The notes under the pieces are model-generated. The model saw nothing but the letters and a program-made list of their open reading frames with translations, was not told the DNA's origin and did no database searches. Source: a phage. From it: DNA of 64,000 nucleotides. This document shows positions 911-8,697 of the stretch, piece by piece. Position 1 is the first letter of the stretch, and the number at the start of each line of letters is the position of its first letter. A program made the position numbers and the translations under genes. Location: the sequence record PX246731.1. The stretch is one strand, 5' to 3'.

Positions 911-1240
911 ATGAAAACTTTACTTAAAGGTATTGCAGTAGCTGCACTGATAGCTTTGGCTCCAAATGCACAAGCAATTGAGCCAGAACCAATTCTGGAA
1001 GGTGCTCAGGCTTATCTGGATGACACTCGCGATGCGTTCGGACAAGGATTCTTCATGGGCAGTATGATCTCTTACATCGAGAGCACAAATAACTGTGTTC
1101 CGGATGGTATGAAGTATTCCGACATTCTACCTAAGATTGCCAAAGTAGTTATTTATGATTCTGCAATCCTCAAATTGAAGAATACATCTCAAATTGTCGT
1201 GTACTCCGTACACAAGGCATATCCCTGCACTAAATCTTAA
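911..1240 (+). CDS. small secreted/periplasmic protein (signal peptide)
   Basis: N-terminus MKTLLKGIAVAALIALAPNAQA has a basic n-region, hydrophobic core and AxA cleavage motif. Confidence 0.45.
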   Translation: MKTLLKGIAVAALIALAPNAQAIEPEPILEGAQAYLDDTRDAFGQGFFMGSMISYIESTNNCVPDGMKYSDILPKIAKVVIYDSAILKLKNTSQIVVYSVHKAYPCTKS

Positions 1241-1274
1241 TCAGTAATCCCATTAGCTTTAGGAGAGTAAGTAA

Positions 1275-1588
1275 ATGGCAAGCATCGACTCCTTGACTGT
1301 ATGTAATTCACGTCAAGCTCGTAACTTTATTATCCGTGCCCTGAAAGCAGGTAACGTACCGTTCCTGACTTCATCACCTGGCATGGGTAAATCTGCAATC
1401 ATTCGTTCTATTGCAGAAGAATTTGGTATGAAGTTAATTGACCACCGTCTATCTACTTCTGCCCCGGAAGACCTGTCTGGCTTACCTTTCCGTAATGGTG
1501 ACCGTGCAGAGTTTATTCCATTCGCTGACTTATTCCCCATTGAGGGAGACGAAGTACCAGAAGGCTATAATGGCTGGCTCTTATTCCT
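1275..1588 (+). CDS. MoxR-like AAA+ ATPase, exon 1 of 3 (join 1275..1588, 2471..2804, 3671..4075)
   Basis: RBS aggag upstream of ATG 1275. Walker A SSPGMGKS. The ORF ends LLFL just before an in-frame stop; the Walker B continuation DEFN is found 882 nt downstream in frame. Confidence 0.7.
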
Positions 1589-2470
1589 TAACTGACGGGG
1601 CTTCATGAGAGCAATCTCATGTCGAAAGTTACCTAAACAGGGAACCTCTTCTAATATGGTTGGCTCAGGTGTATACTTGAGTTTTAATCAATTGGAGACA
1701 ATCCTGTGCTAAATAATGAAATTTGGAAAGATGTGCCCGACTTACCGTATGAAGTTTCCAACTTTGGTGTAGTACGCCGAAAAGAAGGAAAGTATAAATA
1801 CAAAAATAGGACACATATAAAACCGTATCTTAATAACAAAGGGTACTACTGCGTGAACCTGTACATGAATAGTAAAGTGTACAAATATCAAGTTCATCGT
1901 CTGGTAGGCATAGCCTTTGTACCAAACCCCAATAACTATCCAGTTATTAATCATATAGATGGAAACCCTCTTAATAACCACGAGAGTAACCTGGAATGGT
2001 GTACCCAGTCCCAAAATATTAAACATGCTTGGGATACTGGATTATTGTCAAACAGACATGCCAACGCTAGTAACAAAAATCGTGGAGGCTCCTCCAAATA
2101 CGTAGGTGTATCCTGGAGTGAGCAAAGACAAAGATGGTGTGCCCATATAAGGGTTAACAAGAAATCTATTGGTTTGGGACGTTACAAAACAGAGGAAGAG
2201 GCTGCCAAAGCCTATGACTCCTACGTAACTAACAACAATCTTACACAGATTGGGTACAGTACCAATTTCATTTAAACGCCAAACGACTATCGAAAACACA
2301 CAGAAATGTGGAAGTGAGTAGAGTAGGGTGCAAGCCAATGGCACTCGAAACGGTAACAGCCCTAGCAATAGGGCTTTGATATAGTCTCCTCTGCATGGTG
2401 ACATGCAGCAGTCAGTATTCACTGAGTGTACTGACGGCATTAGTAGTTGCGAACTAATGTGAAGATAATG
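1589..2470 (+). mobile_element. Group I intron 1 (self-splicing intron carrying an HNH homing endonuclease ORF)
   Basis: 5' exon ends in U (1588); intron ends in G (2470). GNRA hairpin catgaga-gcaa-tctcatg at 1604-1621. Core 2276-2470 contains gatatagtct (group IA S-element-like) and hairpin ctgcatg-gtga-catgcag at 2391-2408. Strong similarity with covariation to the second element at 2805-3670. Confidence 0.7.
1706..2275 (+). CDS. HNH homing endonuclease (NUMOD4 / HNH_3-type, intron-encoded)
   Basis: GTG start at 1706 with ggag RBS. N-terminal EIWKDV..YEVSNFGVV (NUMOD4-like), HRLVGIAF and NHIDGNPLNNHESNLEW (HNH), C-terminal AP2-like YVGVSW..W.A.I. Lies inside intron 1. Confidence 0.75.
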   Translation: MLNNEIWKDVPDLPYEVSNFGVVRRKEGKYKYKNRTHIKPYLNNKGYYCVNLYMNSKVYKYQVHRLVGIAFVPNPNNYPVINHIDGNPLNNHESNLEWCTQSQNIKHAWDTGLLSNRHANASNKNRGGSSKYVGVSWSEQRQRWCAHIRVNKKSIGLGRYKTEEEAAKAYDSYVTNNNLTQIGYSTNFI

Positions 2471-2804
2471 CGACGAGTTCAACTCAGCTAAGAAAGAAGT
2501 AGTAGCTGCTGCATACAAGCTGATTCTCGACCGTATGACTGGTCAGAAAAAGCTTCATCCTAACGTGATGATTGTCTGTGCTGGTAACAAAGCTACCGAC
2601 CGTGCCATTGTTAACCCATTGGGTACTGCAATGCAGTCTCGTGTGGTTCACTTTGAAATGGAACTTAACTTCGACATCTTTGTTGAAGACGTAATGATTC
2701 CTCAGCAATGGGATGAACGTCTGGTTGCATTCTTACATGCTAACCCAGGTTACCTGCATGACTTCGACCCAGCACACAAGAACAAAACGTTCTGTTGCCC
2801 ACGT
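2471..2804 (+). CDS. MoxR-like AAA+ ATPase, exon 2 of 3
   Basis: Begins DEFNSAKKEVVAAAYKLILDR, completing Walker B (LLFL|DEFN). Contains sensor-1-like VMIVCAGN. Proposed end at 2804 (U, codon boundary), 15 nt upstream of the intron 2 GNRA hairpin, the same spacing as in intron 1. Confidence 0.6.
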
Positions 2805-3670
2805 AAACACACTGCGATTCAGGGGAGTAATTCCCTGTCTAAAGCTGCCTAAAACGGGAAACACTTTACATTCTGTTGCCTAAAGGTAATATGTAAAAGT
2901 CAATCCGTTACTAAATTGGGAGTCAGCATGAGTGAGATTTGGAAAGATGTTGTTGAATTTGAAGGTTTATACCAAGTATCTAATACAGGTAAATACCGTA
3001 AGCATGAGTCACGCCAATCTGTAAATAAGTACAGAGAAGTTAAGCCCCTTATCAGGGCACTTAACAAGAACCGATTAGGTTATCTGTATGCCTCTATGTA
3101 CAAAGATGGGAAGACTCATAAGAAAACTATTCATCAACTCGTTTGTGCAGCATTTAAACCAGGCTTTAAGTATGGTGATCCTGTTAACCACTTAGATGGT
3201 AATAAGGAGAATAACCATGAAGACAACCTGGAACCATGCACCGCACAAGACAATAATCTCCATGCTCATAAAACTGGGCTAGCCCCTAAACCAGGTAAGT
3301 CTGTGTACCACAATGTGCACATACGTCGTAGTAAGTATAAAGATAAAATTTACACTTATTACGAAGCCAAGGTTAAAGATAATTACAAGGTAGTATTCTA
3401 CAAACAGTTTAAAGATGAGGTAGCTGCTGCTAAAGCCGTAGATGCCTATCTGGACTCAATTGGGGATACTAGACGTAAACGTAATTTCTGACTTCCATAA
3501 ATGTCCAACGACTATCCCGGGGAGGGAGTAGAGCATAAGCCAATGATGCTCGAAATGGTAGCCACCCTACAGGTAATGCTAAGGGTGTTGATATAGTCTA
3601 GTCTGCATGGTGACATGCAGCAGTTCATAAGAGAACGGGCGTAGTCTTGCGAACTACGTCGAATATCACG
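2805..3670 (+). mobile_element. Group I intron 2 (self-splicing intron carrying an HNH homing endonuclease ORF)
   Basis: GNRA hairpin cagggga-gtaa-ttccctg at 2820-2837. Core 3520-3670 shares gatatagtct and the ctgcatg-gtga-catgcag hairpin (3603-3620) with intron 1. 3'-terminal hairpin cgtagt/actacg (3640-3658) covaries with intron 1 attagt/actaat (2439-2458). Terminal G at 3670, 12 nt after that hairpin in both introns. Confidence 0.65.
2928..3491 (+). CDS. HNH homing endonuclease (NUMOD4 / HNH_3-type, intron-encoded)
   Basis: ATG 2928 with gggag RBS (ORF track starts at TTG 2916). SEIWKDVVEFEGLYQVSNTG (NUMOD4-like), HQLVCAAF and NHLDGNKENNHEDNLE (HNH). Distinct sequence from the intron 1 endonuclease. 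Confidence 0.75.
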   Translation: MSEIWKDVVEFEGLYQVSNTGKYRKHESRQSVNKYREVKPLIRALNKNRLGYLYASMYKDGKTHKKTIHQLVCAAFKPGFKYGDPVNHLDGNKENNHEDNLEPCTAQDNNLHAHKTGLAPKPGKSVYHNVHIRRSKYKDKIYTYYEAKVKDNYKVVFYKQFKDEVAAAKAVDAYLDSIGDTRRKRNF

Positions 3671-4075
3671 ACCTGGGACTTTGTTAATAAAGACCTCAAG
3701 AACCTACCGGAAGGTGCTCTGCCTGATGAGGATTCTATCTACTATGCAGGACACGTTACTGCTGGTAAGGCTACAGAGTTTGTTCAGTTTACACAGGTGT
3801 ACAATCGTATCATTACGATTGAGAAAGTAGTCAAAGACCCACTGGGCTGTGCACTACCGGAAGATAACAACCTGTGCTGGGCTACTGTTAACCATCTGGC
3901 TAACAAAACTACTGAAGAGAACTTCGCTGATGTTCTTCAGTACATTGAACGCTTTAAAACGTTCACCCATAAGATTCTGTACTTCCGTACAGTAGGCAAT
4001 GCATTACCAGATCTTCAGGCTACCCCTGAATGGCGTAAGGCTGCTGCTAATATCTCTCGCTATATTCACGGATAA
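3671..4075 (+). CDS. MoxR-like AAA+ ATPase, exon 3 of 3
   Basis: Frame is open from 3614; first exon codon proposed at 3671 (acc, TWDFVNKDL...) immediately after the intron terminal G. Stop at 4073-4075. The three exons sum to 1053 nt (350 aa). Confidence 0.6.
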   Translation, partial: TWDFVNKDLKNLPEGALPDEDSIYYAGHVTAGKATEFVQFTQVYNRIITIEKVVKDPLGCALPEDNNLCWATVNHLANKTTEENFADVLQYIERFKTFTHKILYFRTVGNALPDLQATPEWRKAAANISRYIHG

Positions 4076-4082
4076 TCACAAC

Positions 4083-5258
4083 ATGAACCAATTTCCTCAG
4101 CACACACTTAGTGATGAACAACTCATGCGTGAGTATGACCGTATTCAGGCTCAGGCCTTCCTGGGCAAGTCTGCTGCGTTCTTTGGTTCATTGCTGTGTA
4201 GTCTTAAGTTCTCATGGAAACGTGAGGATTGCCCCACTGCATGTACTGATGGGATAGAACTCCATTTCAACCCAGACTTCTTTATCTGGATGTGTCCAGA
4301 TGCAAGAGAAACAGTATTAATGCATGAACTATGGCATGTAGCATATCTACATGACATCCGTCGTGGAAGCCGTGACCCGGAAATCTGGAACCAGGCTTGT
4401 GACCACTTCATTAACCTTCAGTTAGAAGAAGATGGTTACAAGTTCACTGGCATTGACAAAGGCATTTGCAAAGACCCTCAATATAAAGGATGGGTCGAAG
4501 AAGACATCTACGATGACCTGATGAAGAACCCTCAGAAAAGGCAGAAGCCGTCAGGGGGTGCTGGAGCAGGTCTTGCTGGCGACATGAAATCCCCCACTTC
4601 GGGGCAGTCCCAGGGTGCTGTTGTCAACAACGTAGTACGTGCAATGCAGAGCCAAAAGATGGCTGGTGGAACAATGCCCGGTAAGGGTGCTGGTCGTATG
4701 GAAGAGGTTATTACCCAATTCCTTAAACCAGTGGTTCCATGGCAGGAAGTTCTCATGAACTTCTTTACCGACATTGATGACACACATTATACGTGGGCCA
4801 GACCTAACCGTCGTTACACTGACATCTATCTACCTTCACTGGAAGATGATGAAGGTCGTTTACGCCACTTAGCCTACTTTGAGGATGTGTCTGGTTCTAT
4901 TAGTAGTGCTGACTCTCTGCGTTTTAACTCAGAGGTCGCCTATGTTAAGAGCCAGTTTAATCCTAAGAAGATGACCCTAATTACCTTCGACGATACTATT
5001 CAAGAAGAGATAGACATCACTGAAGAAGATACTTTTGAAGAGATTAAGATTACTGGTCGTGGTGGTACAAACCTGGAACCAGTACGCGAGTGGATTATTA
5101 AGAATAAGCCAACCGCTGCAATCATATTCTCCGATATGTATGTTCGCCCAATGGAAGAATTGCCATTTGATATCCCTATCATCTGGTGTGTTCTGAATAA
5201 TCCTAATGCTACCGTACCTTTTGGGGAGGTAGTTCATATCCCTAAAGGAATGAAATAA
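4083..5258 (+). CDS. VWA-like domain protein with HExxH metallopeptidase-like N-domain (MoxR partner, DUF2201/COG3864-like)
   Basis: HELWH motif (HExxH) in the N-domain; C-terminal VWA-like region (MTLITFDDT..ITGRGGTN). Sits directly downstream of the MoxR ATPase, the canonical MoxR-VWA arrangement. Start chosen at the first ATG after the exon 3 stop; ORF track shows an upstream extension from 3999. Confidence 0.6.
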   Translation: MNQFPQHTLSDEQLMREYDRIQAQAFLGKSAAFFGSLLCSLKFSWKREDCPTACTDGIELHFNPDFFIWMCPDARETVLMHELWHVAYLHDIRRGSRDPEIWNQACDHFINLQLEEDGYKFTGIDKGICKDPQYKGWVEEDIYDDLMKNPQKRQKPSGGAGAGLAGDMKSPTSGQSQGAVVNNVVRAMQSQKMAGGTMPGKGAGRMEEVITQFLKPVVPWQEVLMNFFTDIDDTHYTWARPNRRYTDIYLPSLEDDEGRLRHLAYFEDVSGSISSADSLRFNSEVAYVKSQFNPKKMTLITFDDTIQEEIDITEEDTFEEIKITGRGGTNLEPVREWIIKNKPTAAIIFSDMYVRPMEELPFDIPIIWCVLNNPNATVPFGEVVHIPKGMK

Positions 5259-5800
5259 TGGAAACACCCATAAAAACCTGTCGCAAGTGTTTGCAGGAGT
5301 TCCCGGCTACGCTTGAGTTCTTTTACAAGAACGCTGGTGGCAAATATGGGGTAACTCCACGGTGCAAATCATGTGTTAATGAGGATAATGCAGCCGGGCA
5401 TGCAAAACGTTTGGCTGCTAATCCAGAAAAGATACGTGCTCAAGCTGCTGCCCGTAGTAAAAAACATTATTACAAAGATTTGGAACAATCGCGTGAACGA
5501 CAGTGTATAGCTCAAAAGAAAGCGAGAAATGATCCCGTAAGGGGAGAACGTATTAAAGCACGTAAACGTGCAAATGGTGCTGGGCTAACACCGGAAGAGA
5601 TACAACAACTCCTCATTAGTCAAGGAGGCGTGTGTGCTATCTGTGGTGATCCACCTACCGATTTAGACCATTGCCATAAAACAGGTAAAGTTAGATTTCT
5701 ACTATGTAAGCATTGCAATAGAGGACTGGGTGCTTTTAAAGATAAGCCAGAACTAATGCGAAAAGCTGCACAACTACTGGAAGACTTCAATGATAATTAA
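5258..5800 (+). CDS. Endonuclease VII-like HNH nuclease (free-standing homing-endonuclease-like)
   Basis: Paired Cys motifs: CRKC..C.SC at the N-terminus and GGVCAICGD..DLDHCHKTGKVRFLLCKHCNRGLGAFKD (Endonuclease_7/HNH-type zinc site). Start overlaps the upstream stop (TAATG). Confidence 0.65.
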   Translation: METPIKTCRKCLQEFPATLEFFYKNAGGKYGVTPRCKSCVNEDNAAGHAKRLAANPEKIRAQAAARSKKHYYKDLEQSRERQCIAQKKARNDPVRGERIKARKRANGAGLTPEEIQQLLISQGGVCAICGDPPTDLDHCHKTGKVRFLLCKHCNRGLGAFKDKPELMRKAAQLLEDFNDN

Positions 5801-6242
5801 CCGTAATCGCTTACTTGAATTGTCTCCAATAAAAAACATGGTTAACTCAAAGCAAACCTTTAATGGTTTTTCTTGGGGATTAACAGAATGCGGATACGAT
5901 ATTCGTATTAAGCAAGATGTGACCATGTTTTTAGGTCGTCGTTTCGTGTTGGCTTCTGCCATAGAAGAATTCGATGTACCTCATAACCTAATGGGACGAG
6001 TACTCAACAAGAGTACCTGGGCCAGAAAGGGTATTGATGCAAGCATGACTACCAATATCGAACCAGGATGGAAAGGTTTCTTGACTCTTGAGCTTCGTTA
6101 TTCGGGAATATTGCCCATTACAATCAAAGCTGGTACTGGTATTGCACAGGTTATCTTCGAAGAGATAGCTGAACATTGTAGTTACAATGGCAAGTATCAG
6201 AACCAGGAAAACCAACCAGTAGCTGCTAGACCTTCAAAATAA
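5790..6242 (+). CDS. dCTP deaminase-like (dUTPase-fold) protein
   Basis: Motifs resemble the dCTP deaminase/dUTPase superfamily: NKSTWARKGI, NIEPGWKGFLTLEL, GIAQVIF. Start is uncertain (internal ATG candidates exist). Confidence 0.45.
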   Translation: MIINRNRLLELSPIKNMVNSKQTFNGFSWGLTECGYDIRIKQDVTMFLGRRFVLASAIEEFDVPHNLMGRVLNKSTWARKGIDASMTTNIEPGWKGFLTLELRYSGILPITIKAGTGIAQVIFEEIAEHCSYNGKYQNQENQPVAARPSK

Positions 6243-7310: not shown

Positions 7311-7753
7311 TGCGTATTCCATTCCTAAGAAAAAGAGAACGAAATCCTGTTCTTTATAATAAAGGCATAGAGGATGAGTATGAACTCAACCGTAAAGCTC
7401 GTTCCTACACAACAAAATTATTCATGGGGACTAAAAACCCTGATAGATTATTGGACTTTGTTTTTGAACAAGTCTTTATCATATACAGCTTAGCTATGTC
7501 TGCTGGTTCACAAGAAGTGAGTGATAAGGCAAGAGATGCTCTCTGTATGCTCCATAAAGAGTATGAAGCCCTCATGTATGAAGACTTATACTCCTTTAAA
7601 AAAGAAACCGCTGTAGCGTGTTCTGTGGCTCTTACTGAAGGTGTAGCAGTATTACAGGAACTACCTCGTAGTGAGTTTAAGCTGGTATACGTTCAGGTTA
7701 AGAAAATCACAGAGACGAGAAGTGGTATCACCAACTATCTAAGGTCATTCTAA
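7310..7753 (+). CDS. hypothetical protein
   Basis: 147-aa ORF; start overlaps the upstream stop, stop overlaps the downstream start (translational coupling). Confidence 0.4.
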   Translation: MRIPFLRKRERNPVLYNKGIEDEYELNRKARSYTTKLFMGTKNPDRLLDFVFEQVFIIYSLAMSAGSQEVSDKARDALCMLHKEYEALMYEDLYSFKKETAVACSVALTEGVAVLQELPRSEFKLVYVQVKKITETRSGITNYLRSF

Positions 7754-8697
7754 TGATTAAGGCAACTGTCATTGCAGATTCCGTTCATCCAGAAACAGGA
7801 ACTCGTATCACAACCTTTGAATTGGTTTACCCCCGATTCATTCACAGTGAGTTTATGACTCACCGTGTATTTAACCGTAACGCTTCAAGCAGTCGTGCTA
7901 TCCCAACTGCTAAGTTCATCGAACAGGTTCGTAATGAACCAGTGATGCCAAGTCACTGGGGTAAGAACCAGAAAGGTATGCAAGCAGAGGAAGAACTCAC
8001 TCCTTTGGAGATTGTAGACGCTACATTTGCATGGAAGCAAGCTGCCACAAGTGCAGCTATCTATGCTGAAATCCTTCGTCGTGGGCAAGTACATAAGCAA
8101 ATTGTTAACCGTATTCTGGAACCGTTCACACATATCCGTGTAGTGGTAACTTCAACTAGCTGGGCTAACTTCTATGGATTGCGTGACCACAAAGATGCAC
8201 AACCAGAGATTCGTAAACTGGCTCAAGCAATGCGTAAGGCACATGAGGAAAGTACGCCAAGGGCATTACCATATGGGCAATGGCATCTACCTTATATTGC
8301 TCATATTGACCGTGTTGGGGCTTACAATTTCTGCAAACGTAATCGAATTACACGCGATGAACCAAGTGATGCAGAAGTGCATGGACTACTTCTCAAAGTA
8401 AGTGCTGCACGTTGTGCCCGTGCTTCATATAACAACTTTGAAGGACGCCCGTCCACTATCGAAGAAGATCTCGGTTTATTTGCTAAGTTAGTGGAAAACC
8501 AACCTATTCATGCTTCCCCAACGGAACATCAGGCTACGCCTATGAACCTTGGTGAGAAGTACGTGAATAACATGAACCCAGTTACATGGGAGCAAGGTGT
8601 TACATCCATGGATAAAGAAGGGAATCTGTATTCAGGTAACCTGCTCCACTTTATCCAATTCCGTAAGTTAATTCCTGGTGAGACTATTACTGAATGA
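7753..8697 (+). CDS. ThyX-like flavin-dependent thymidylate synthase (putative)
   Basis: HRVFNRNASSSR fits the ThyX signature H-R-x7-S; the N-terminal region resembles ThyX. Longer than typical ThyX, so the assignment is tentative. Confidence 0.45.
   Translation: MIKATVIADSVHPETGTRITTFELVYPRFIHSEFMTHRVFNRNASSSRAIPTAKFIEQVRNEPVMPSHWGKNQKGMQAEEELTPLEIVDATFAWKQAATSAAIYAEILRRGQVHKQIVNRILEPFTHIRVVVTSTSWANFYGLRDHKDAQPEIRKLAQAMRKAHEESTPRALPYGQWHLPYIAHIDRVGAYNFCKRNRITRDEPSDAEVHGLLLKVSAARCARASYNNFEGRPSTIEEDLGLFAKLVENQPIHASPTEHQATPMNLGEKYVNNMNPVTWEQGVTSMDKEGNLYSGNLLHFIQFRKLIPGETITE

Follow-up and report, generated by a model that had tools for sequence, protein, structure and literature searches.

The gp24/gp25 module in a 64-kb phage sequence: a MoxR-class ATPase gene with two group I introns and a VWA partner with a putative metallopeptidase domain

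Two neighbouring genes at positions 1275–5258 of a 64,000-nucleotide (nt) stretch of phage DNA (sequence record PX246731.1; the whole stretch is referred to below as the window) encode a MoxR-class AAA+ ATPase, whose gene is interrupted by two group I introns, and a partner protein in which an HExxH motif is followed by a C-terminal VWA domain. Judged by orthology and synteny, the locus is the gp24/gp25 module of phage N4. On balance, it is probable that the two proteins act as an ATP-dependent remodelling and protease machine that captures its substrate through a MIDAS (an adhesion site that depends on a metal ion), a reading that names no client.

Megablast of window positions 1000–6000 returned 106 phage records, nearly all from N4-like podophages of the genus Gamaleyavirus (Schitoviridae), the closest being Gamaleyavirus NAN33P5 (95.7% identity over 81% of the query). 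The gp24 and gp25 of the window are 97–98% identical to other Gamaleyavirus copies, and a homologue with 62% identity is found in Escherichia phage AlfredRasser (Bas69), which we take to be an N4-like phage. In phage St11Ph5, the counterparts are annotated as gp24 (ATPase, 350 amino acids (aa)) and gp25, and are flanked by a gp17-like gene and small genes on one side and by dCTP deaminase (gp26) and thymidylate synthase genes on the other. The window has the same order, with a gp17-like fragment, small open reading frames (ORFs), the ATPase, its partner, dCTP deaminase (5790–6242) and ThyX (7753–8697). Orthology and conserved position, from the gp17-like genes to dCTP deaminase and ThyX, hold for both genes against the N4 gp24/gp25 groups, and gp24 and gp25 match PHROG 1297 (E 1e-133) and PHROG 1314 (E 1e-145), respectively.

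An initial annotation of the window had described an intron-split MoxR-type ATPase, followed by a protein with an HELWH motif and a C-terminal VWA-like region, as a match to the conserved bacterial MoxR–VWA pairing, and had supposed the ATPase gene to be conserved across relatives. The split gene and the partner, at 4083–5258, are both present as described, the pair recurs in bacteria, plasmids and other phages, and gp24 is a core gene of N4-like phages. The placement of the pair in an early region was mistaken, as N4 gp24 and gp25 are middle transcripts (PMC4193335).

Neither gene is new. In a roseophage genome paper, N4 gp24 is entered as a putative AAA ATPase, and gp25 is placed in the vWFA superfamily with no known function (PMC2784036); in a paper on a Sinorhizobium N4-like phage the gp25 orthologue is annotated with pfam13203. 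Chan et al., 2014 counted 14 core genes in 25 N4-like phages; gp24 and gp25 are two of these, and are also two of the five for which they give no known function (PMC4193335). The combination of a MoxR AAA+ ATPase with a vWA protein carrying an N-terminal metallopeptidase has been described in group 2.2 jumbo phages (Iyer et al., 2021; PMC7824862). Because the genes are orthologous (97–98%) to annotated genes and the architecture is in print, the pair is counted here as already known, and for the window the outcome is the correct re-identification of an annotated, uncharacterised module. The searchable literature yielded no experimental work on the N4-type proteins gp24 and gp25, with DUF2201, COG3864, DUF3150, essentiality, CRISPRi-ART and phage transposon mutagenesis included in the search. 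The interest of the module is that two of the 14 genes common to N4-like phages, shared with plasmids and bacteria, are still without an assigned function. What is added here is the spread of the pair over phages, conjugative plasmids and cyanobacteria, the sites of its introns, and the mislabelling of gp25.

The ATPase and its partner protein

The exons of the ATPase gene were mapped by blastn of the uninterrupted St11Ph5 gp24–gp25 region, which gave three collinear blocks with a 1-nt ambiguity at each junction. Exon 1 (1275..1588, forward strand), delimited against the intron-less St11Ph5 gp24, encodes residues 1–104 and two nt of codon L105, and contains the Walker A motif (SSPGMGKS, nt 1371–1394) and the DHRLSTSAPEDLSGLP segment. 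Exon 2 (2471..2804, forward strand) runs from the last base of codon 105 to residue 216 and carries Walker B (D106 and E107), sensor 1 (N144), the arginine finger (R162) and CCPR216, and exon 3 (3671..4075, forward strand) supplies residues 217–350 and the stop codon, corresponding to the all-alpha C-terminal region. Joined, the exons give a 350-aa ORF identical to St11Ph5 gp24 at 346 of 350 positions. A pseudogene, or a gene split by free-standing endonuclease genes, was considered and rejected, as the junctions restore the frame exactly and a group I core is present. What Gamaleyavirus annotations give as separate 'ATPase' fragments are the exons of a single gene.

We accept gp24 as a MoxR-class AAA+ ATPase, as the initial annotation had it, on its motifs, its predicted fold, the features of its model and its homology to a Synechocystis protein. 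The motifs [ST]xxPxDLxG, DE(I/F)N and xxSR are typical of the AAA_5/MoxR/midasin group, and gp24 has GxxGxGKS, [ST]xxPxDLxG(L/I)P after beta-2, hhhhDE, AGN and SR. Among 41 N4-like gp24 relatives, G38, K39, S40, D106, E107, N144, R162 and the DHRLSTSAPEDLSGLP segment after beta-2 are invariant, and the catalytic residues also align across divergent homologues. An AlphaFold2 model was made from a 97%-identical orthologue (predicted local distance difference test score (pLDDT) 86.6, predicted template modelling score 0.81). Its secondary structure includes a 40-residue insert with short strands between beta-2 (53–58) and beta-3 (101–106), and short strands at 127–133 ahead of beta-4 (137–144), which in the model would be the helix-2 insert and pre-sensor-1 hairpin of the MoxR clade; a long all-alpha C-terminal region follows the core.

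Foldseek comparison of gp24 with the PDB placed the NorQ hexamer 9qh4 (E 5.6e-7), NorQD (9qhd, 9qhg) and CbbQ (6l1q, 5c3c) at or near the top, at E 5.6e-7 to 1e-5 and with the best template modelling (TM) scores (0.62–0.65 on the target); AAA modules of dynein, MCM, midasin and the clamp loader came next. In searches of PDB sequences, with the single sequence and with a profile, gp24 matched only the midasin AAA module, at a weak E of 3.7e-4. The gp24-family profile matches a protein of Synechocystis plasmid pSYSA at E 1.8e-44, and this homologue passes Pfam AAA_5 at 25.3 bits and is named 'MoxR family ATPase' by NCBI. Pfam had been expected to return AAA_5 or MoxR for the ATPase and DUF2201 or VWA for the partner. 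The second half of this forecast was correct, with DUF2201_N and DUF2201 found on gp25, whereas for gp24 only the generic AAA profile scored above its cut-off (27.2 vs 21.2 bits) and AAA_5 was sub-threshold. NCBIfam gave no match for gp24 or gp25.

The gene for the gp25-like partner (4083..5258, forward strand, 391 aa) starts with an ATG at 4083, 7 nt after the ATPase stop codon. Pfam assigns DUF2201_N to residues 17–253 (E 1.5e-56, 192.5 bits) and DUF2201 ('VWA-like') to residues 263–386 (E 3e-35, 121.5 bits); the DUF2201 family comprises PF13203 and PF09967 and is described as a 'predicted metal-dependent peptidase'. The HELWH motif (residues 81–85, nt 4323–4337) and D107 lie in the N-terminal domain. 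The VWA domain (nt ~4869–5240) has a VWA fold with a complete MIDAS (DxSxS...T...D), formed by DVSGS (nt 4884–4898), T329 and D351. In an AlphaFold2 model of gp25 (pLDDT 77), a confident N-domain is followed by a poorly modelled Gly-rich/helical linker and a C-terminal alpha/beta domain. The top Foldseek match of gp25 is the VWA domain of CLCA1 (E 7.9e-4), with the NorD VWA and BchD among the VWA matches, and searches of PDB sequences with the single sequence and with a profile gave no match.

Residues H81, E82, H85, D107, D268, S270, G271, S272, T329 and D351 are invariant in 42 N4-like gp25 relatives. The HExxH, NxAxD, DxSGS, GGGT and TD motifs are also kept in 11 very distant homologues, from Bacillus phage G, a 384-kb coliphage, an rV5-like phage, a 60-kb Rhizobium phage and plasmids of Burkholderia, Cupriavidus, Rhodococcus, Synechocystis and Pontibacillus, with DxSLS in Pontibacillus as the sole departure. 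On these alignments, selection on the MIDAS and on the HExxH site has been strict across very large evolutionary distances. The motifs, the Pfam label and a weak Peptidase_M48 match at the HExxH motif of a plasmid homologue make the N-domain a putative zincin-like metallopeptidase.

RefSeq names gp25 an HNH endonuclease, a label that stems from PHROG 1314. This identity was rejected: Pfam gives DUF2201_N and DUF2201 only, and the label is wrong because gp25 has no HNH domain. The mislabel probably arose from confusion with the HExxH motif or with the adjacent homing endonuclease genes. Orthologues in three further loci (L001, 4336–5511; L002, 5001–6175; L011, 3938–5116) are labelled likewise, and some are called 'anti-sigma factor' or 'homing endonuclease'. 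Thousands of database entries that name a gp25-type protein 'HNH endonuclease' are in error.

Group I introns in the ATPase gene

Intron 1 (1589..2470, forward strand, 882 nt) is td-like and splits codon L105, a single base short of the Walker B Asp codon. Intron 2 (2805..3670, forward strand, 866 nt) is a phase 0 insertion between R216 and T217, in a nearly invariant FCCPRTW segment; by its lid position and its likeness to the MoxR 'SPR' motif, R216 is the probable sensor-2 arginine. The upstream exons end in U and the introns in G (U1588/G2470 and U2804/G3670), as group I splicing requires. Each intron contains a homing endonuclease gene on the forward strand. That of intron 1 (1706..2275) encodes a 189-aa protein with NUMOD4, HNH_3 and AP2 domains (Pfam 1e-9, 3.8e-8 and 4.6e-10) that belongs to PHROG 59, and that of intron 2 (2916..3491) a 191-aa protein with NUMOD4 and HNH_3 (Pfam 1e-8 and 4.1e-6).

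At gathering thresholds, Rfam found no RNA family anywhere in the window. A permissive scan placed Intron_gpI at 3447–3620 in intron 2 (32.6 bits, E 7.6e-6) and at 2098–2408 in intron 1 (18.9 bits, E 0.096), neither of which reaches the gathering score of 50, in alignments that include the conserved GACUA...GAUAUAGUC and P9 hairpin segments. The intron halves that lack the ORF can be aligned with each other, and compensatory changes, read by eye from these two sequences, keep P2, P3, P4, P8 and P9.2 paired (P2 as CAUGAGA/UCUCAUG vs CAGGGGA/UUCCCUG, and P3 as UUACC/GGUAA vs CUGCC/GGUAG). The 3' half of intron 2 is 70–72% identical to T-even td introns (over 70% of length) and matches the T4 nrdB intron at 94% identity over 51 nt. 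Introns that lie in a DNA polymerase gene (T7-like) and in a terminase gene (rV5-like) are similar to it as well. The window holds two copies of the group I core only. This evidence bears out the intron-split description of the gene, and self-splicing is predicted from it.

The presence of the introns varies among relatives, with both in NAN33P5, the first only in U1G, and neither in St11Ph5 and most others. In Shigella phage pSb-1 (L027, 777–1653), a third gp24 intron site lies inside the APEDL/SGLP motif, at the stroke, and the intron has its own HNH ORF; its 5' end, TAACTAATAGGG, resembles that of intron 1 of the window, TAACTGACGGGG. With this third site, at least three catalytic-motif codons of gp24 are therefore intron targets in close relatives. 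The introns occupy the most conserved codons of gp24, as is usual for homing elements. A 10-nt direct repeat, TTCTGTTGCC, is present at 2790–2799 (the end of exon 2) and at 2871–2880 (inside intron 2), 81 nt apart, and may be due to chance, to alternative pairing or to a trace of homing.

A further gene on the forward strand (5258–5800) lies between gp25 and the dCTP deaminase gene and overlaps both gene ends. It encodes a 180-aa Endonuclease_7-type protein (Pfam 7.4e-19), which is probably a free-standing homing endonuclease. St11Ph5 does not have this gene, and gp25 there abuts the dCTP deaminase gene.

Linkage and distribution of the pair

By tblastn, relatives of gp25 were found in 752 phage records, which span N4-like phages of many hosts, Bacillus phage G, 350–380-kb enterobacterial jumbo phages, Pseudomonas phage Paride, rV5-like phages, ~145-kb Klebsiella/Erwinia phages, Aeromonas phages and a 60-kb Rhizobium phage. 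A profile run against 1.84 billion cluster representatives (50% identity) picked up 21,441 relatives at E <= 1e-3, of which 5,223 remained at E <= 1e-30. In jumbo phage WPEC3 (the 384-kb coliphage), a gp24-family ATPase adjoins the gp25 homologue (hidden Markov model E 3e-39 and 2e-41), with DprA-like and thymidylate synthase genes following the pair. In Rhizobium phage TM27B, the ATPase gene is 1 kb upstream of the gp25 homologue and beside DNA polymerase I. The 'anti-sigma factor' gene upstream of the gp25 homologue in the rV5-like phage was examined as a candidate and is not the ATPase; it is also unrelated to the middle gene of the plasmid cassette described next.

On plasmids, tblastn found a gp25 homologue in 113 records. 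Conjugative plasmids of Burkholderia (L015, 4889–8158) and Cupriavidus (L017, 4939–8161) share a cassette of three genes, which encode a full-length gp24-like ATPase (E 1e-45 to 1e-51 vs the gp24 profile), a protein of 305–309 aa and a DUF2201 protein. The 305–309-aa protein has a weak sub-threshold match to DUF3150 in the Cupriavidus copy only. The cassette stands beside VirB-type transfer genes (type IV secretion system) in Burkholderia and on an MPF_T conjugative plasmid in Cupriavidus, and a conserved gene of ~506 aa and no assigned family lies upstream of it. On Synechocystis pSYSA, sll7028 and its MoxR neighbour overlap and lie amid toxin–antitoxin (TA) and DUF262 genes. The overlap of the two genes is 4 nt in cyanobacteria and on pSYSA, and 11 nt in Pontibacillus. 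A Rhodococcus neighbour annotated as 'AAA family ATPase' was rejected, being a superfamily 1 helicase and not a gp24 homologue.

A scan of genome contigs with gp25 patterns returned N4-like sequences only and no cellular homologues; these were reached through the plasmid tblastn and a search seeded with the Synechocystis protein. Five cyanobacterial contexts were obtained (L021, L022, L024, L025 and L026), four of them independent, as two Synechococcus loci are near-identical. An AAA gene stands beside the DUF2201 gene in four of the five, with a 4-nt overlap in the two Synechococcus loci, and an LRV/HEAT-repeat protein (226–1170 aa) is adjacent in all five, so that the AAA, DUF2201 and LRV/HEAT-repeat proteins may constitute a three-component system. 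TA, BrnT, HEPN/MNT, E2-CBASS/JAB/ThiF, HIRAN or TraG-like genes are found near these pairs.

Three database records held N4-like sequence under other names. A contig of a Roseococcus metagenome-assembled genome (L004, 296 kb) and contig2 of Mesorhizobium yinganensis (L005, 727 kb) contain N4-like synteny blocks that match the gp24, gp25, dCTP deaminase and ThyX of the window and further ORFs of the replication block; they are either integrated N4-like elements or assembly/binning chimeras. The Acinetobacter baumannii 'plasmid' pRBH2-3 (L016, 75 kb) encodes a phage-type RNA polymerase, a gp24-like ATPase (E 1e-97) and a gp25-like protein, and looks like an N4-like phage genome.

Possible functions and comparison with known systems

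The gene structure, family assignments and folds of the pair, the invariance of its catalytic motifs, and its tight gene linkage and wide distribution over mobile elements are established by the analysis above. In the machine considered probable here, both group I introns would be spliced out to give gp24, a MoxR-class ATPase that presumably forms a hexameric ring, and gp25 would be a co-transcribed partner made in the middle phase of infection. The intact MIDAS metal site of the gp25 VWA domain would grip an acidic residue of the target and couple the target to the ATPase ring, while the N-terminal HExxH/NxAxD zincin-like domain would cleave the captured or remodelled protein. This mechanism is proposed by analogy with NorQ/NorD, where the hexamer is docked by a single VWA protein whose MIDAS contacts the client and not the ATPase, and where the VWA protein transmits ATP hydrolysis so that the client is remodelled (PMC9976466, PMC13036017). 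Complex formation, proteolytic activity and the coupling of gp24 and gp25 are inferred. If correct, an ATP-driven, MIDAS-targeted protease would be a new kind of AAA+ protease, and would explain a universal step in the N4 middle phase.

As for the target, one in the host cell or at the interface between element and host is favoured over a virion component, because the pair is also found on conjugative plasmids, in variable regions of cyanobacteria and in several unrelated groups of lytic phages. It is conceivable, though rather improbable, that the module is a widespread but unrecognised class of two-component ATP-dependent protease which incoming mobile DNA, such as lytic phages from several families and conjugative plasmids, uses to remove a conserved host protein soon after entry, with the cyanobacterial LRV/HEAT versions as its cellular counterpart; the protein so removed may be, for example, a DNA-bound or defence protein.

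Several findings weigh against an ATP-driven remodelling protease of this kind. For the ATPase, AAA_5 and bpMoxR score below their Pfam cut-offs (17.4 vs 22 bits and 13.8 vs 27 bits, respectively). For the partner, the N-domain has no solved relative by sequence, and the fold searches gave VWA only among the matches listed; the VWA itself is a minimal version of ~125 aa in which a pore-inserting 'finger' of the NorD type is not identifiable. The linkage of the two genes is also not uniform, as in the rV5-like phage the ATPase gene is 3.6 kb from the gp25 homologue and on the opposite strand, and in phage G there is no gp24-family ATPase within 4 kb of the gp25 homologue. Lastly, a core gene that is universal in a phage family more typically serves replication or assembly than a host-specific conflict.

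A rival reading is a role in the virion, in which MoxR–vWA would fold or assemble capsid, tail or internal proteins and the zincin would trim them, as an assembly chaperone and maturation protease. For the same architecture in jumbo phages, Iyer et al., 2021 put forward a part in virion assembly that includes proteolytic processing, citing the requirement for MoxR–vWA in tail development of Acidianus two-tailed virus (PMC7824862). In WPEC3, three genes annotated 'virion structural protein' are immediately upstream of the pair, and in the N4-like phages the pair are core genes of a family that packages a 3,500-aa RNA polymerase. We nevertheless regard this role as unlikely. It fits poorly because clear homologues of both proteins occur on conjugative plasmids, pSYSA and cyanobacterial chromosomes, which build no virions, because the N4-like genes share a middle block with those for dCTP deaminase, ThyX and replication, a long way from the late structural module, and because the virion proteins reported for N4-like roseophages do not include gp24 or gp25; the homologues in Rhizobium phage TM27B likewise flank DNA polymerase I. 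The same block, with its dCTP deaminase and ThyX neighbours (thymidylate synthase in WPEC3), could be taken to suggest that the pair inserts a metal cofactor into, or otherwise activates, a phage or host metalloenzyme, for example one of nucleotide metabolism. The HExxH would then be a metal-handling site and not a protease, in a chaperone of the NorQ/NorD, CbbQ/CbbO or CobS/CobT type. The closest solved structures, NorQ, NorQD and CbbQ, agree with this, as do NorD VWA and BchD among the VWA matches. Even so, it is very improbable: the nucleotide-metabolism neighbours are not kept in plasmids or cyanobacteria, the strictly conserved HExxH...NxAxD module, a putative metallopeptidase in Pfam, is unlike anything in NorD, CbbO or CobT, and there is no Pfam match to CobS/CobT, CbbQ_C or NorD-type regions. 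Identity with CobS/CobT, a chelatase pair that is a frequent annotation in phages and plasmids, was rejected outright, as the CobS/CbbQ_C and CobT profiles had no match among Pfam hits at E up to 0.1.

The company that the bacterial copies keep raises a third role, in which the bacterial pair and a variable third component (LRV/HEAT-repeat or DUF3150-like) would be a defence or thresholding system resembling the MoxR–vWA ternary systems of Kaur et al., 2020, and the phage and plasmid copies would destroy or decoy host immunity proteins on entry. Cyanobacterial copies are found amid TA, HEPN/MNT, E2-CBASS/JAB/ThiF and HIRAN genes with an LRV/HEAT-repeat neighbour in all five contexts, pSYSA is rich in TA and DUF262 genes, plasmid copies adjoin transfer genes, and MoxR–vWA couples have been documented as switches in conflict systems (PMC7159879). 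For the phage pair, on the other hand, PADLOC gave no match for gp25 and marginal partial matches only for the ATPase (DolB E 0.0064, IetA E 0.065), the bpMoxR model of Pfam is far below threshold, and none of the third core components that define those ternary systems (VMAP, inactive STAND, FtsH, or a beta-propeller fused to vWA) is encoded next to it. Strict core-gene status over phages of alpha-, beta- and gammaproteobacteria also speaks against a host-specific anti-defence role, and such a module is distinctly improbable.

The remodelling protease that we prefer can be set beside several known systems. FtsH joins an AAA motor and an HExxH (M41) zinc peptidase in one chain, and is a loose analogy to the two chains of gp24/gp25; it is of the classical AAA clade and is membrane-anchored. 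CLCA1 has a zincin followed by a VWA, the same domain order as gp25, and CLCA has no ATPase partner. The likeness of FtsH and CLCA to gp25 is an analogy alone, with no sequence relationship of the peptidase domains established. In NorQ/NorD and CbbQ/CbbO, which serve metal insertion into NO reductase and the activation of Rubisco, respectively, one adaptor gene lies beside one MoxR gene, as in gp24/gp25, and the VWA has an intact MIDAS. NorD and CbbO differ in that their N-terminal domains are large and non-catalytic and that a 'finger' of the VWA reaches into the pore of the ATPase, whereas gp25 has a zincin-like N-domain and a minimal VWA; gp24, compared with NorQ and CbbQ, has an additional helical C-terminal extension of ~90 aa. 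Unlike in chaperones of the NorQ/NorD type, the adaptor in gp24/gp25 also bears a predicted peptidase. The jumbo-phage pair of Iyer et al., 2021 has the same two-gene architecture, a likeness drawn from its description, and its virion role there is a proposal and not a result; the WPEC3 jumbo-phage proteins are longer (442 and 469 aa), with insertions, than those of the window.

The introns have their own counterparts in the T4 td and nrdB introns, with which they share the U before the 5' splice site and the terminal G, an ORF looped out between the ribozyme halves and insertion at highly conserved codons. They differ in that the host gene is a MoxR-class ATPase, that the Rfam scores are below gathering, and that their ORFs are of the HNH/NUMOD4 kind (one with AP2), whereas that of the td intron is the GIY-YIG enzyme I-TevI. 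The closest counterpart of the whole locus is N4 itself, where the orthologues of both genes keep the order and surroundings seen here (gp17-like, small ORFs, gp24, gp25, dCTP deaminase, ThyX). Against its N4-like relatives, the window is set apart by a gp24 with two group I introns and an EndoVII-type gene after gp25, where most relatives have none or one.

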